From: Flavobacteriales bacterium
Lineage (GTDB): Bacteria > Bacteroidota > Bacteroidia > Flavobacteriales_D > Sanyastnellaceae
DNA length: 64,000 nt
Assembly: GCA_043748015.1 (NCBI GenBank)
Contig: JAYTOA010000182.1
Location: 8,331 to 72,330 of the forward strand
Direction of reading: 5' to 3'
Shown here piece by piece: positions 12,973 through 49,510 of the stretch. Every line of letters starts with the position of its first letter. The first letter of the stretch is position 1. The translations under genes and the position numbers were made by a program. Below the pieces are notes generated by a model, which was given only the letters and a program-made list of their open reading frames with translations, did no database searches and was not told the origin of the DNA.

Positions 12973-12990
12973 TTTTCAGGAAAGCGAGAT

Positions 12991-13063
12991 GATTCCGTAG
13001 CTCAGCTGGTAGAGCAATACACTTTTAATGTATGGGCCCTGGGTTCGAATCCCAGCGGGATCA
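12991..13063 (+). tRNA. tRNA-Lys (anticodon TTT)
   Basis: I folded the cloverleaf by hand. The acceptor GATTCCG pairs with CGGGATC and the anticodon arm is ATACA-CTTTTAA-TGTAT. The T arm is CTGGG-TTCGAAT-CCCAG, the discriminator is A, and no CCA is encoded. Confidence 0.9.
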
Positions 13064-13080
13064 CAAAAGCAGAAGAAATT

Positions 13081-13129: not shown

Positions 13130-13214
13130 GCCCTGGTGGTGAAATTGGTAGACACGTACGTTTGAGGGGCGTATTTCGCAAGATGTGCTGGTTCGAGTCC
13201 AGTCCAGGGCACCA
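13130..13214 (+). tRNA. tRNA-Leu (anticodon GAG), type II, with encoded CCA
   Basis: The acceptor GCCCTGG pairs with CCAGGGC and the anticodon arm is TACGT-TTGAGGG-GCGTA. It has a long variable arm, a T arm GCTGG-TTCGAGT-CCAGT, discriminator A, then CCA. Confidence 0.9.
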
Positions 13215-13295: not shown

Positions 13296-13513
13296 GGAGT
13301 GAAGTTCTCCTTCAAAAAAACTTCTGAGGCACGGAGCTGATGAGATCACTTTTTACCGAAGTGGCGGAATTGGTAGACGTGTCCCGACTGCAAGTCGGGA
13401 TGCCGAAAGATGTGAGGGAAATAAAATCTGGAGTGAAGTTCTCCATCAAAAAACTTCTGTGGCGCGAAGCTGATGAGATCACTTTTTACCGAAGTGGCGG
13501 AATTGGTAGACGT
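13296..13513 (+). repeat. Tandem duplication (period 134 bp) of a 65-nt upstream region plus the first 26 nt of a tRNA-Leu gene
   Basis: Segments 13296-13380 and 13430-13513 align with only about 5 differences. The shared sequence is GGAGTGAAGTTCTCC.TCAAAAAACTTCTG.GGC.CG.AGCTGATGAGATCACTTTTTACCGAAGTGGCGGAATTGGTAGACGTG. Confidence 0.8.
13355..13418 (+). pseudogene. 3'-truncated Leu-type tRNA-like gene carrying a palindromic anticodon-arm replacement
   Basis: The acceptor 5' strand and D arm are identical to the intact tRNA-Leu(CAG). They are followed by TCCCGACTGCAAGTCGGGA and a variable region. The copy stops after GAGGG (5' half of the T stem), so there is no T loop and no 3' acceptor strand. 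Confidence 0.6.
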
Positions 13514-13569
13514 GCACGTTTCAGGTGCGTGTGCTGCAAGGCGTGAGGGTTCGAGTCCCTTCTTCGGTA
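13488..13569 (+). tRNA. tRNA-Leu (anticodon CAG), type II
   Basis: The acceptor ACCGAAG pairs with CTTCGGT, giving a compensated A1:U72 pair. U8 is present, the D arm is GCG/CGT and the anticodon arm is CACGT-TTCAGGT-GCGTG. It has a long variable arm, a T arm GAGGG-TTCGAGT-CCCTT, discriminator A and no CCA. Confidence 0.85.
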
Positions 13570-13570
13570 C

Positions 13571-13600
13571 GAAGAGGTCGTCAGTAGTGACGGCCTTTTC
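13571..13600 (+). terminator. Rho-independent terminator of tRNA-Leu(CAG)
   Basis: GGTCGTCA-GTAG-TGACGGCC is followed by TTTTC. The upstream GAAGAGG can extend the pairing into the T tract. Confidence 0.6.
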
Positions 13601-13630
13601 AATTAAAAATCAAAAAGACAAGACGAAAAG

Positions 13631-13736
13631 GAATTGATAGACGCGTCCCGACTGCAAGTCGGGATGTTGTAAAACGTGAGGGTTCGAGTCCCTCCTTCGG
13701 TACGAAGAGGTCGTCAGCTTGACGGCCTTTTCAATT
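13631..13736 (+). repeat. Direct repeat, left copy: 5'-truncated Leu-type tRNA-like body (13631-13702) plus terminator (13704-13732)
   Basis: The copy starts inside the D loop (GAATTGATAGACGCG) and has no 5' acceptor strand. It contains the palindrome TCCCGACTGCAAGTCGGGA, the T arm GAGGG-TTCGAGT-CCCTC, CTTCGGT-A and a terminator. It is identical to 14028-14134 except for the terminator loop. Confidence 0.85.
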
Positions 13737-13760
13737 TACTTTTACTGAAACCTCTTTCCA

Positions 13761-14021
13761 ATGTATTTCTGCTATATCCTCTATTCCAAAAGTCTCGACA
13801 AATTTTATGTAGGCTCTTGTTCCGATCTGGAAAACAGAATTAGAAAACACAATCTCGGGCATGCAACATTTACGTCAACAGGCATTCCCTGGGAGCTGAA
13901 ATGGTCGCGTTCATTCGAAACAAATTCACTCGCTCTTCAATTCGAAAAATCTGTGAAGAAGAAAAAATCAAGAATCTATATTGAGAAACTAATCAAAGAA
14001 ACTTGGATAGAAATACACTGA
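13761..14021 (+). CDS. Small stand-alone GIY-YIG (URI-domain) nuclease family protein
   Basis: The 86-aa ORF has FCYILYS (GIY-like), FYVGSCSDLENRIRKHN (YIG-like plus the conserved Arg/His-Asn) and QFEKSVKK (conserved Glu). Size and motif order match the COG2827/YhbQ-like family. Confidence 0.8.
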   Translation: MYFCYILYSKSLDKFYVGSCSDLENRIRKHNLGHATFTSTGIPWELKWSRSFETNSLALQFEKSVKKKKSRIYIEKLIKETWIEIH

Positions 14022-14027
14022 TCCTTA

Positions 14028-14134
14028 GAATTGATAGACGCGTCCCGACTGCAAGTCGGGATGTTGTAAAACGTGAGGGTTCGAGTCCCTCCTTCGGTAC
14101 GAAGAGGTCGTCAAACATGACGGCCTTTTCAATT
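14028..14134 (+). repeat. Direct repeat, right copy: 5'-truncated Leu-type tRNA-like body (14028-14099) plus terminator (14101-14130)
   Basis: The first 86 nt and last 17 nt are identical to 13631-13736. Only the terminator loop differs (AACA versus GCT). Confidence 0.85.
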
Positions 14135-49397: not shown

Positions 49398-49413
49398 TCC
49401 TTCATCTTTTTTG

Positions 49414-49487
49414 TAGCGGGAGGGGGGCACGATCCCCCGACCTTGCGATTATGAATCGCACGCTCTAACCAGCTGAGCTACCCCGCC
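49414..49487 (-). tRNA. tRNA with anticodon CAT (elongator Met, or Ile2 if lysidine-modified)
   Basis: The reverse complement is GGCGGGG-TA-GCTC-AGCTGGTTA-GAGC-G-TGCGA-TTCATAA-TCGCA-AGGTC-GGGGG-ATCGTGC-CCCCC-TCCCGCT-A. The cloverleaf is 74 nt. There are no three G-C pairs at the anticodon-stem base, so it is not an initiator. No CCA is encoded. Confidence 0.8.
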
Positions 49488-49495
49488 AAAAAATT

Positions 49496-49510
49496 GCGGG
49501 CGCAAATATA
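49496..49510 (-). promoter_or_regulatory. -7 box TATATTTG plus CGCCCGC upstream of the CAT tRNA
   Basis: The minus strand reads TATATTTGCGCCCGC, 8 nt before the tRNA 5' end. It is identical to 12958-12972. Confidence 0.45.

Follow-up and report, generated by a model that had tools for sequence, protein, structure and literature searches.

A GIY-YIG nuclease gene flanked by hairpin-bearing partial tRNA copies as a candidate cassette of Bacteroidota tRNA loci

A small nuclease gene in a tRNA array of a Flavobacteriales bacterium appears to belong to a chromosomal cassette that is widespread and is present here as a single unit. This cassette would have two parts: a gene for a single-domain GIY-YIG nuclease of about 80 aa located just 3′ of a live tRNA, and incomplete copies of the same tRNA with a stem-loop, in most cases exactly the anticodon arm (positions 27–43), swapped for a hairpin of the form TCCCGA-loop-TCGGGA. 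We lean modestly towards the view that this is an Ssn-like nuclease and hairpin pair that is resident at tRNA genes and spreads and amplifies by recombination between the tRNA-derived repeats. The cassette is akin to known kinds of element, and no earlier description of it was found in the literature searched, as the original prediction had supposed.

The window analysed here is a 64,000-nt stretch of one contig. The features on which the argument depends are given below, all on the forward (+) strand, with the evidence for each in brackets.

12991–13064 (+): tRNA-Lys(UUU), first of a conserved Lys-Leu-Leu array (ARAGORN; Rfam 72.8 bits, threshold 29)
13130–13214 (+): tRNA-Leu(GAG), intact (ARAGORN; Rfam 48.4 bits, threshold 29)
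13296–13354 (+): leader copy 1, 59 nt, of the kind usually found before tRNA-Leu(CAG) (direct-repeat families D4 and D7)
13355–13418 (+): upstream scar, a 5′ fragment of tRNA-Leu(CAG) (repeat family D2)
13382–13400 (+): hairpin HP-1, TCCCGACTGCAAGTCGGGA, within the upstream scar (motif scan)
13430–13487 (+): leader copy 2, immediately before the live tRNA (repeat families D4 and D7)
13488–13570 (+): live tRNA-Leu(CAG) with its native anticodon arm, CACGTTTCAGGTGCGTG, at positions 27–43 (ARAGORN; Rfam 47.8 bits, threshold 29)
13571–13604 (+): terminator of the live tRNA, a hairpin followed by a T tract (sequence; same terminator in relative L081)
13631–13736 (+): repeat R1, comprising D loop, hairpin, variable arm, T arm, acceptor 3′ strand and terminator (repeat families D1 and D5)
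13646–13664 (+): hairpin HP-2, replacing tRNA positions 27–43 in R1 (motif scan)
13761–14021 (+), stop included: ORF for a single-domain GIY-YIG nuclease of 86 aa (Pfam, AlphaFold2, Foldseek)
14028–14134 (+): repeat R2, the same as R1 except for the terminator loop (direct-repeat analysis)
14043–14061 (+): hairpin HP-3, in R2 (motif scan, DNA fold)

From position 12989 onwards the array is 100% identical to an independent ENA metagenome contig (L001), and thus the locus is not an artefact of one assembly.

The ORF between the repeats was first recognized as a GIY-YIG nuclease from short motifs, and Pfam bears this out: PF01541 is matched with an E value of 1.3e-15 (57.9 bits versus a cutoff of 22.6) and is the only domain above cutoff. 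An AlphaFold2 model (pLDDT of 90.2) has GIY-YIG topology with a beta-beta-alpha-alpha-beta-alpha core, comprising strands at residues 2–9, 14–20 and 44–52 and helices at residues 23–32, 36–39, 55–68 and 71–85. The best Foldseek matches to this model are UPF0213, Slx1 and I-TevI. Residues Y5, Y8, Y16, G18, R26, H30 and E62 (window-ORF numbering) are invariant or at least 90% conserved among 32 sequences, and the window ORF keeps the catalytic-core residues, namely the Tyr of GIY and of YIG, the Arg, the His and the Glu. All 86 aa fall within the catalytic domain according to both Pfam and AlphaFold2, with no DNA-binding domain. Inspection of the ORFs and flanks also upheld the earlier statement that the locus carries no integrase, transposase or intron: between 13571 and 14282 the GIY-YIG gene stands alone, and the flanking genes are housekeeping.

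The repeats that bracket the ORF are as close as originally described. Positions 13631–13716 match 14028–14113 (86 nt, 100%) and positions 13720–13736 match 14118–14134 (17 nt, 100%), such that the terminator loop, GCT versus AACA, is the sole difference. The spacing is 397 nt, and the copies are separated by 24 nt, the 261-nt ORF (13761–14021) and 6 nt. Both repeats begin in the D loop and lack a 5′ acceptor strand, and the claim that neither is a functional tRNA holds in that both lie below the Rfam tRNA threshold; their only Rfam match is to tRNA-Sec (20.7 bits, threshold 47). No full cloverleaf at the Rfam tRNA gathering score occurs in R1, R2 or 13355–13418, and the three intact genes are the only members of the array above 29 bits.

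What had been overlooked is that the repeat is not an ordinary tRNA 3′ segment, because its anticodon arm is replaced by a conserved hairpin. R1 and R2 are chimeric partial copies of the neighbouring tRNA-Leu(CAG) with its terminator, in which the anticodon arm has been swapped exactly. Both carry the resident terminator (called at 13704–13732 in R1) and the ancestral T stem; the live tRNA-Leu(CAG) differs from its relatives and from R1 and R2 at two places, GACGTG versus GACGCG and CCCTT versus CCCTC.

The hairpin TCCCGACTGCAAGTCGGGA is a 19-nt palindrome standing in place of tRNA positions 27–43, which read CACGTTTCAGGTGCGTG in the live gene, and is set in its surroundings as GAATTGATAGACGCG-TCCCGACTGCAAGTCGGGA-TGTTG. 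Folded as DNA, the R2 copy forms a hairpin of 9–10 bp with a dG of −9 kcal/mol and a z score of −5.1. Hairpins at 13646–13664 and 14043–14061 flank the ORF on both sides, and a third lies at 13382–13400. A motif scan recovered 194 hairpin copies in 567 kb of sequence, compared with a background of 0.3 matches per 64 kb in shuffled sequence, and the hairpin is essentially confined to nuclease-bearing tRNA loci. A fourth hairpin-like match in the window (49482–49500, beside a tRNA-Met) was set down to chance, as it shares bases with the acceptor 5′ end of this gene and has neither a tRNA-like copy nor a GIY gene near it.

Several other readings of the sequence around R1 were dropped. ARAGORN calls a tRNA-Cys(GCA) at 13622–13703, which is a forced call given that the repeats fall below the Rfam tRNA threshold. 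The loop CTGCAAG was also rejected as a Cys (GCA) anticodon, or as a CAA anticodon on a Leu body, since it belongs to a palindrome of 9–10 bp with a 3-nt loop and the same stem recurs in Lys, Ala, Met and Arg contexts. Neither the 26 nt before R1 (similarity p of roughly 0.28) nor the 11-nt filler after the upstream fragment (p of roughly 0.14) stands out as a remnant of a deleted ORF, the control value being 0.17.

The upstream scar preserves a 5′ portion of the tRNA. In order, positions 13355–13418 hold the acceptor 5′ strand, the D arm, the hairpin in place of the anticodon arm and the variable arm, with 3′ truncation after the T-stem 5′ strand (GAGGG). It is preceded by leader copy 1 (13296–13354), which is 96% identical to leader copy 2 (13430–13487) by direct-repeat analysis and homologous to the leader in relatives. 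Like-type 5′ fragments are also present at three other loci (L094, L024 and L030).

A presence/absence difference at the orthologous site was anticipated and is found: the ORF is missing from 12 orthologous loci with the gene order Lys-Leu-Leu-DAHP synthase. Relatives L081–L095 share the Lys-Leu-Leu tRNA array, and one of the ORF-less loci, L094, carries the upstream scar alone. Because the relatives have a bare tRNA array, the roughly 570–600 extra bases 3′ of the live tRNA, together with the upstream fragment, would have been either gained here or lost there. Even the nearest ORF-less relatives are distant, with 64–75% aa identity in the flanking gene, and either direction of change would fit.

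The same arrangement recurs far beyond this window. Clustered at 90% identity, the protein family runs to at least 7,071 clusters, with 4,114 representatives at E≤1e-10. Its members are chromosomal and occur in Bacteroidota and allied phyla only. Among the 600 pattern matches listed (one genome per species), at least 515 encode relatives; the cultured carriers include Algoriphagus aquaeductus T4, Algoriphagus sp. A40, Pontibacter rufus, Danxiaibacter flavus and Flagellimonas alvinocaridis. We compared about 80 related loci. A same-strand tRNA or tRNA-like copy lies within 200 nt upstream of the ORF in 59 of 70 loci (median gap of 44 nt), and a TCCCGA...TCGGGA hairpin lies within 150 nt downstream in 59 of 74, whatever the tRNA type; at the remaining loci, approximately 15 of 74, the pattern used did not match a hairpin. 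Thus, the proposal that nuclease, partial tRNA copy and terminator form a recurrent unit rather than a one-off has been substantiated by these counts and by arrays of up to seven units. At most loci a live native tRNA copy adjoins the nuclease gene.

The hairpin consensus TCCCGA-loop-TCGGGA is common to different tRNA types. In 41–42 of the 61 Lys-type downstream copies it is an exact replacement of positions 27–43, and the equivalent anticodon arm is replaced in Arg-, Met- and Leu-type copies and in most Ala-type copies. The hairpin sits instead in the T arm of Asp-type copies, of seven Lys-type copies and of a subset of Ala-type copies; one Ala-type copy (L031) has it in the T loop. Each arm is either native or hairpin, with zero intermediates. 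Compensatory stem variants occur (TCCCGC/GCGGGA, TTCCGA/TCGGAA and CCCCGA/TCGGGG), the first of them only with the sister proteins L003 and L021. The hairpin also marks the boundary between outer halves that are near-identical to the live tRNA and inner parts that have diverged from it.

Copy number varies among loci. Tandem arrays of seven, four and three units occur (L005, L044 and L067, respectively), another locus (L040) has five 159-nt units from which the ORF has been deleted internally, and L030 has eleven 92-nt units upstream. The 5′ acceptor strand is absent from many tRNA-like copies, and those upstream end before the T arm reaches its 3′ half, so that the acceptor 3′ strand is missing too. 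Two further features of the family were observed at the ends of the gene: the 3′ end of the ORF continues into tRNA 5′-like sequence, and in many cases the ORF starts right after the T tract of an upstream terminator, which leaves no room for its own promoter.

Protein clades follow the tRNA type and the cassette is kept at one locus across Algoriphagus species. For these reasons, inheritance may be mostly vertical, with copy number changing locally, rather than marked by frequent movement. We found no relatives in 2.9 million viral contigs, no match to a PHROGs family and no plasmid vehicle, the single weak plasmid match being to B. subtilis yazA. A search with PADLOC for a link to defence systems gave weak matches only (E of 0.002 to ‘HEase’).

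The closest parallel to this nuclease and hairpin pair is the Ssn family with its NTS repeats, described by Chenal et al. (Nat Commun 2025; PMC11893778). These enzymes attach to a hairpin and cleave single-stranded DNA immediately on its 5′ side; hairpins of this kind flank the majority of ssn genes, and RNA is not bound by SsnA (PMC11893778). That paper mentions neither tRNA nor Bacteroidota. As a proxy for the Ssn clade (CDD cd10448), we used a 95-aa family that was fetched with a probe sequence and validated by the exact NTS repeats that flank its genes. The window family aligns with this Ssn-type proxy with an hhalign probability of 97.8% (E of 1e-12). Cross-scores between the two are 24–45 bits compared with self-scores of 130–198 bits, and the window ORF itself scores 24 bits on the proxy profile, where proxy members score 176–198 bits. 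The score against UPF0213 is 40.8 bits, which places the family equally far from the Ssn type and from UPF0213. These profile comparisons indicate that the family is homologous to the Ssn nucleases yet is a distinct subfamily.

The resemblance extends to gene architecture. In both cases a single-domain GIY-YIG protein of about 90 aa (86 aa for the window ORF) is encoded by a gene flanked by hairpin-forming palindrome copies of fixed orientation; the Ssn family is characterized by proteins of about 90–100 aa and by oriented repeats of 20–50 nt on one or both sides of the gene. The cores are also alike, ATTCCCGCG...CGCGGGAAT for NTS and TCCCGA...TCGGGA for the window family, with CGTC or CATC running into the stem. 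In contrast to NTS repeats, the window-family hairpins are not scattered genome-wide but occur inside partial tRNA copies at a single locus, in direct rather than inverted orientation, and the cassette forms tandem arrays. The hairpins also lie outside the published SRM pattern, HGTCWYN(0-2)YYVSBRHN(0-5)WNVSBRGN(0-2)RNCYNB, which has no match in the window and one in 499 kb of family loci, whereas both NTS copies were recovered in the positive control (L161).

By analogy with Ssn, the hairpin is probably the nuclease’s cognate site, and we infer a mechanism of hairpin-directed nicking followed by recombination repair. The nuclease would bind the hairpin folded in single-stranded DNA and introduce a nick a few bases to its 5′ side, whenever such DNA may be exposed: during replication, where strong transcription of a tRNA gene produces R-loops, or on DNA that enters the cell. 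Because the live tRNA does not have the hairpin, it would be spared and the host would retain the tRNA. Breaks would be repaired through homologous recombination between the tRNA-derived repeats, and this repair would duplicate, delete or copy cassette units, as was demonstrated by experiment for phage SegB in tRNA clusters. The outcome would be a cassette that persists and amplifies at tRNA loci, with ladders of hairpin-tagged tRNA fragments as its scars. Simple unequal crossing-over does not account for the first hairpin-substituted copy, nor for the 3′-truncated upstream fragments with filler.

The precedent for amplification comes from SegB, a free-standing GIY-YIG homing endonuclease of the tRNA cluster of T-even phages that cuts in tRNA genes and gives rise to tandem amplification of tRNA and segB through homologous recombination of a tRNA 5′ region with the segB 3′ end (PMC13096335). 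The likeness lies in a GIY-YIG gene among tRNA genes, an ORF whose 3′ end runs into tRNA 5′-like sequence, and arrays. However, SegB is a two-domain phage protein whose substrate is double-stranded DNA, cleaved at a T-loop-like motif, whereas the window family is a bare catalytic domain, chromosomal and absent from viral collections, with a dedicated hairpin. The UPF0213 proteins (BH0048, EF2693, YazA/YhbQ) and the Slx1 nuclease domain offer the best solved-structure matches and share the compact GIY-YIG core, although their similarity to the window family is just 20–41 bits. Slx1 requires partner domains, and to our knowledge neither UPF0213 nor Slx1 is tied to tRNA genes or hairpin repeats.

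REP/RAYT and IS200/IS605 systems likewise comprise a small nuclease gene flanked by hairpins that are recognized single-stranded and are presumably multiplied by the enzyme. Their enzymes, HUH Y1 transposases, work through covalent intermediates, whereas GIY-YIG enzymes only hydrolyse DNA, and therefore any copying of the cassette must use host recombination. The REP/RAYT-type analogy was raised by the Ssn authors for their own family (PMC11893778).

A bolder extension of the preferred reading, which we hold only tentatively and regard as a good deal less probable than the cassette itself, is that the hairpins are the ends of a new mobile element. Such an element would split a tRNA at its anticodon arm and carry a replacement tRNA along with an Ssn-like single-strand nuclease, moving or renewing itself by hairpin-directed nicking and host recombination alone, without a transposase or integrase. 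Repeated invasion and ORF loss would then leave 5′ fragments, each tagged with a hairpin, as the ladders that precede live tRNAs. The proposal is compatible with three observations: sequence outside the hairpin closely matches the live tRNA whereas that inside has diverged, L094 has the scar with no ORF, and two positions distinguish the live tRNA from the ancestral-type flank.

Classical homing, the model put forward originally, is the first of the rival explanations. A free-standing endonuclease would make a double-strand break in the intact tRNA-Leu near the D loop and be copied in during repair, with the tRNA fragments serving as homology arms or target duplications. The 12 ORF-less orthologous loci, the resemblance of the fold to the I-TevI catalytic domain, the weak PADLOC match to ‘HEase’ and the precedent of SegB, a GIY-YIG enzyme that cuts within tRNA genes (PMC13096335), are all consistent with homing. 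However, the protein has 86 aa and no DNA-binding domain, which known GIY-YIG homing enzymes require (PMC11893778), and a native copy of the supposed target sits beside the gene at most loci. Homing also gives no reason for a hairpin conserved across tRNA types, and the family is missing from the 2.9 million viral contigs and from PHROGs, and essentially from plasmids. We consequently find homing unlikely. The same holds for the originally envisaged cleavage of intact tRNA-Leu at the D-loop junction, given a bare 86-aa domain, an uncut tRNA adjoining it at nearly every locus and, as the closest characterized relatives of known substrate, the single-strand-cutting Ssn enzymes.

About equally doubtful is a module that operates at the RNA level, in which the hairpin-bearing tRNA-like transcript would be a processing or stability element at the mRNA 3′ end, or a decoy or antitoxin-like partner, with the RNA as either the target or the companion of the nuclease. 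The exact replacement of positions 27–43 keeps a cloverleaf-like layout, the stem changes are compensatory, the frequent lack of space for a promoter between the upstream terminator and the ORF hints that transcripts read through from the tRNA, and an older report noted bacterial Slx1-like GIY-YIG domains fused to a tRNA methyltransferase (PMC1564403). Yet many copies, including both repeats in the window, lack the 5′ acceptor strand, and upstream copies lack the T-arm 3′ half and the acceptor 3′ strand, which makes tRNA-like folding impossible. Furthermore, the hairpin loop is not of fixed size, ranging between 4 and 9 nt in almost every copy, and RNA is not a ligand of SsnA (PMC11893778).

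Two other explanations are very improbable. A single tandem duplication, confined to this locus and placed around some unrelated UPF0213-type housekeeping gene, with repeats functionally unlinked to it, would suit the 100% identity of R1 and R2 over 86 nt, as expected of a recent local event, and the UPF0213 protein as best solved relative, but the same layout and hairpin recur at dozens of independent loci with several tRNA types and in several phyla. Integrative elements that target tRNA genes, whether phage or ICE, duplicate tRNA 3′ segments and leave a partial 3′ copy beyond an intact, functional tRNA much as here, but a decayed remnant with R1 and R2 as attL- and attR-like duplications is hardly compatible with a 397-bp unit that has no integrase in the insertion or its flanks, with tandem arrays and upstream 5′ fragments, or with a substituted hairpin and an internal D-arm copy, which are foreign to att sites. 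The earlier analogy with the tRNA 3′ duplications of such elements therefore does not fit, as 5′ fragments exist and the copies are chimeric.

If the cassette reading is correct, the family would be a very large branch related to the Ssn nucleases, which were described only in 2025, and its nuclease and hairpin would be tied to one type of genomic site, the tRNA gene, across the roughly 80 loci examined. It would also provide a chromosomal counterpart to the SegB-driven amplification of tRNA loci in phages. In practical terms, the cassette would account for a frequent source of broken contigs and over-extended ORF calls in Bacteroidota assemblies, as well as of odd tRNA calls such as tRNA-???, tRNA-Stop and the false tRNA-Cys of the window. 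The family may in addition be a source of new hairpin and nuclease pairs for single-stranded-DNA tools. Its clean anatomy, with arm replacement, scar ladders, arrays and ORF-deleted units, together with the existence of cultured carriers, makes the effects of hairpin nucleases on genomes testable.

The original prediction described the 86-amino-acid ORF at 13761-14021 as a GIY-YIG nuclease gene, which a PF01541 match (E 1.3e-15) bears out. Direct-repeat comparison also reproduces the predicted repeats on either side: 13631-13716 equals 14028-14113 (86 nt, 100%) and 13720-13736 equals 14118-14134, with terminator loops GCT versus AACA. Neither repeat has a 5′ acceptor strand or reaches the Rfam tRNA threshold. 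The locus runs in the order leader, dead 5′ fragment, leader, live tRNA, terminator, R1, ORF and R2, and this whole arrangement is 100% identical in an independent metagenome contig.

Features of the locus
12991-13064, intact tRNA-Lys-UUU (ARAGORN and Rfam agree)
13130-13214, intact tRNA-Leu-GAG (ARAGORN and Rfam agree)
13296-13354, 59-nt leader copy, duplicate of 13430-13487
13355-13418, dead 5′ tRNA fragment: acceptor 5′ strand, D arm, hairpin and variable arm, ending after T-stem GAGGG
13382-13400, third hairpin copy, inside the 5′ fragment 13355-13418
13430-13487, leader copy ahead of the live tRNA, duplicate of 13296-13354
13488-13570, intact tRNA-Leu-CAG, the live tRNA (ARAGORN and Rfam agree)
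13631-13736, repeat R1
13761-14021, ORF
14028-14134, repeat R2

Alignment with the live tRNA-Leu(CAG) indicates that R1 and R2 contain a tRNA-derived D arm, T arm, acceptor 3′ strand and terminator, which agrees with their earlier description as a tRNA body plus terminator. That description overlooked a 19-nt palindrome, TCCCGACTGCAAGTCGGGA, that takes the place of the 17-nt anticodon arm (positions 27-43) in both repeats, as well as its third copy in the 5′ fragment. As single-stranded DNA, TCCCGACTGCAAGTCGGGA is predicted to fold into a hairpin of 9-10 bp (dG -9 kcal/mol, z -5.1), and shuffled sequence gives a chance expectation of 0.3 such hairpins per 64 kb. An ARAGORN call of ‘tRNA-Cys(GCA)’ at 13622-13703 was rejected: it corresponds to R1, whose acceptor stem had to be forced and whose palindrome was taken as the anticodon loop, and Rfam finds no tRNA match. 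R1-like copies at related loci receive similar calls (tRNA-???, tRNA-Stop(tta), tRNA-Phe or tRNA-Glu). Elsewhere in the window, the palindrome CCCGCCAAAAAATTGCGGG (49482-49500) overlaps the 5′ end of a tRNA-Met (49413-49487, minus strand); neither a tRNA-like copy nor a nuclease gene lies nearby, and this is probably a chance occurrence.

The flanking DAHP synthase/chorismate mutase gene was used as a probe for orthologous loci, yielding the presence/absence comparison at the tRNA-Lys/Leu locus that had been proposed with the prediction. Twelve metagenomic relatives (64-75% amino acid identity) carry tRNA-Lys, tRNA-Leu(GAG), tRNA-Leu(CAG) and DAHP synthase, and the GIY-YIG ORF is found at 0/12 of these loci; the gap 3′ of Leu(CAG) is roughly 90-330 nt in these relatives versus 712 nt in the window. 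In the closest relative, L081, the terminator is the same as in R1 and R2. Its D-stem and T-stem bases also match the repeats, whereas the live tRNA in the window carries two substitutions relative to R1, R2 and all relatives, GACGTG for GACGCG in the D stem and CCCTT for CCCTC in the T stem. Both substitutions yield G-U pairs, and the D-stem change is also present in the upstream 5′ fragment; the live copy could have been imported, or the differences could be plain drift. Another locus, L094 (3649-3793), carries an upstream scar only, comprising a 5′ fragment, the hairpin TCCCGATTTAGAATCGGGA, truncation at GGTTCGA and a duplicated leader, and has no nuclease gene. The ORF could have been lost there by direct-repeat recombination, or the nuclease could have acted in trans.

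The same association recurs among 79 related loci fetched for inspection, which span Bacteroidota (Chitinophagaceae, Saprospiraceae, Cyclobacteriaceae, Hymenobacteraceae, Flavobacteriaceae and Bacteroidales) and the allied phyla Ignavibacteriota, Cloacimonadota and Marinimicrobia. Upstream of the ORF, 59/70 evaluable loci have a tRNA or tRNA-like copy on the same strand (median gap 44 nt); most are Lys-UUU, with Ala-GGC, Asp-GUC, Met-CAU, Arg-UCU, Val-UAC, Lys-CUU and Leu-UAA also represented. Sequence 3′ of the ORF duplicates the local tRNA in part, and the final ORF codons often extend into the 5′ portion of this copy; a TCCCGA...TCGGGA hairpin lies within 150 nt downstream in 59/74 loci. 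The hairpin sits exactly at positions 27-43 in 41-42 of 61 Lys-type copies, and likewise in Arg, Met, Leu and most Ala types; part of the T arm is replaced instead in Asp-type, one Ala-type (L031) and seven Lys-type copies. When the segment between the D stem and variable loop was extracted without presupposing a motif, only two states were found, native anticodon arm or hairpin, with no intermediates across the copies. Compensatory stem variants occur, with TCCCGC/GCGGGA limited to two sister proteins. Nearly all of the 194 hairpins in 567 kb of loci fall within tRNA/nuclease clusters. Some copies have a tandem hairpin pair or a second perfect palindrome, TCCCGATAGCTATCGGGA, in the T loop (L007 2319-2356; L022 683-729; L015/L017 4268-4283), and thus substitution can affect more than one stem-loop of a tRNA-like copy.

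Within copies, the hairpin is a sharp identity boundary. Downstream copies match the live tRNA at a median of 100% to the right of the hairpin and 78% to the left, whereas upstream copies match at 99% to the left and 78% to the right. This pattern fits equally well with hairpin-bounded insertion into a resident tRNA or with the hairpin as a barrier to gene conversion.

Units are also amplified in tandem, with seven in L005, four in L044 and three in L067. At L040 (3130-3925), one full unit follows five tandem 159-nt units, in each of which the nuclease ORF is reduced to its first and last codons, alongside a hairpin-bearing tRNA-Met copy and the terminator; these look like non-autonomous derivatives that have been amplified all the same. 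Many loci carry ladders of 3′-truncated, hairpin-bearing 5′ fragments upstream of the live tRNA. One, in L024, has five 73-nt copies with most decay in the oldest; another, in L030 (2866-3903), has a 92-nt unit, composed of the 5′ part of tRNA-Leu(UAA), the hairpin CCCCGATTAAGATCGGGG and a decayed 3′ part, repeated 11.3 times in tandem immediately upstream of the live tRNA, and its 183-nt higher-order period indicates amplification as two-unit blocks.

The best relative of the window ORF is only 59% identical. The family is large: searches with a profile of 32 relatives hit at least 7,071 clusters (90% identity level) and 4,114 representatives at E<=1e-10, and scanning a single genome for each species yielded at least 515 confirmed relatives. 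No members were found in the viral collections or PHROGs searched, and essentially none in plasmids. Protein clades match tRNA type, and Algoriphagus species carry the cassette at one common locus in 1-3 units; thus, inheritance is commonly vertical, accompanied by local changes in copy number. Many database calls (P0262-P0408) are 100-136 amino acids long, their homologous part beginning at residue 23-55, which is the ORF extended upstream through the tRNA gene by gene callers. A few of 160-214 amino acids hold two matched stretches and are probably tandem units translated together.

Ssn proteins, single-domain GIY-YIG enzymes of about 94 amino acids, bind an oriented hairpin repeat called NTS (CGTCATTCCCGCGMAVGCGGGAATCYRG) and cleave single-stranded DNA immediately to its 5′ side, leaving double-stranded DNA and RNA uncut; such hairpins occur in 71% of regions around ssn homologues (PMC11893778). 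The authors raise a likeness to IS200/REP systems, and do not mention tRNA or Bacteroidota (PMC11893778). For comparison we retrieved a 95-amino-acid family with a probe. One member, L161, served as the positive control: on a 3.67-Mb, non-Bacteroidota-looking contig, exact Neisseria NTS consensus matches (1466-1493 and 1802-1829) lie inverted on either side of its GIY-YIG gene, a textbook NTS-ssn-NTS unit. The window family shares homology with this 95-amino-acid family (hhalign 97.8%, E 1e-12, 30% identity) but is clearly separate (cross-scores of 24-45 bits versus 130-198 for self), and is about equally distant from UPF0213. The tRNA-copy hairpin is missed by the published Ssn motif pattern, though its core resembles that of NTS (TCCCG...CGGGA, with CGTC/CATC leading into the stem).

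A second precedent is SegB, a GIY-YIG enzyme of a phage tRNA cluster that cleaves within tRNA genes and causes RecA-like-dependent tandem amplification of a tRNA-plus-segB unit, via homology of the tRNA 5′ region to the segB 3′ end (PMC13096335). A 2006 GIY-YIG survey, in its section on the Slx-1 cluster, describes fusions of Slx1-like GIY-YIG domains from bacteria to a TrmH-type tRNA (Gm18) methyltransferase (PMC1564403), which hints at a further connection of tRNA with small GIY-YIG domains of bacteria.

On the simplest reading, the hairpin would be the cognate single-strand site of the window nuclease. If the enzyme nicked DNA next to this site during replication or transcription, breaks would follow, and their repair between tRNA-derived repeats would duplicate units, delete them or copy them; the live tRNA would be spared because it carries no hairpin. 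The origin of the first hairpin-substituted copy, and of truncated upstream units with filler, falls outside this mechanism. The predicted selfish module of nuclease and tRNA fragment thus survives as a recurrent, dynamic cassette, given the 59/70 and 59/74 loci and the arrays, but without its classical homing-endonuclease mechanism, which is unlikely for this ORF. The literature that was searched contains no description of the tRNA-embedded form. We rate the cassette as a putative pairing of an Ssn-type nuclease with its hairpin, in which the tRNA locus would be remodelled in the manner of SegB. As expected of repeats, contig ends very frequently fall within a few hundred bases of tRNA/nuclease clusters (L084-L093 and many of L002-L080), and the repeats seem to be a systematic source of assembly breaks in Bacteroidota metagenomes.
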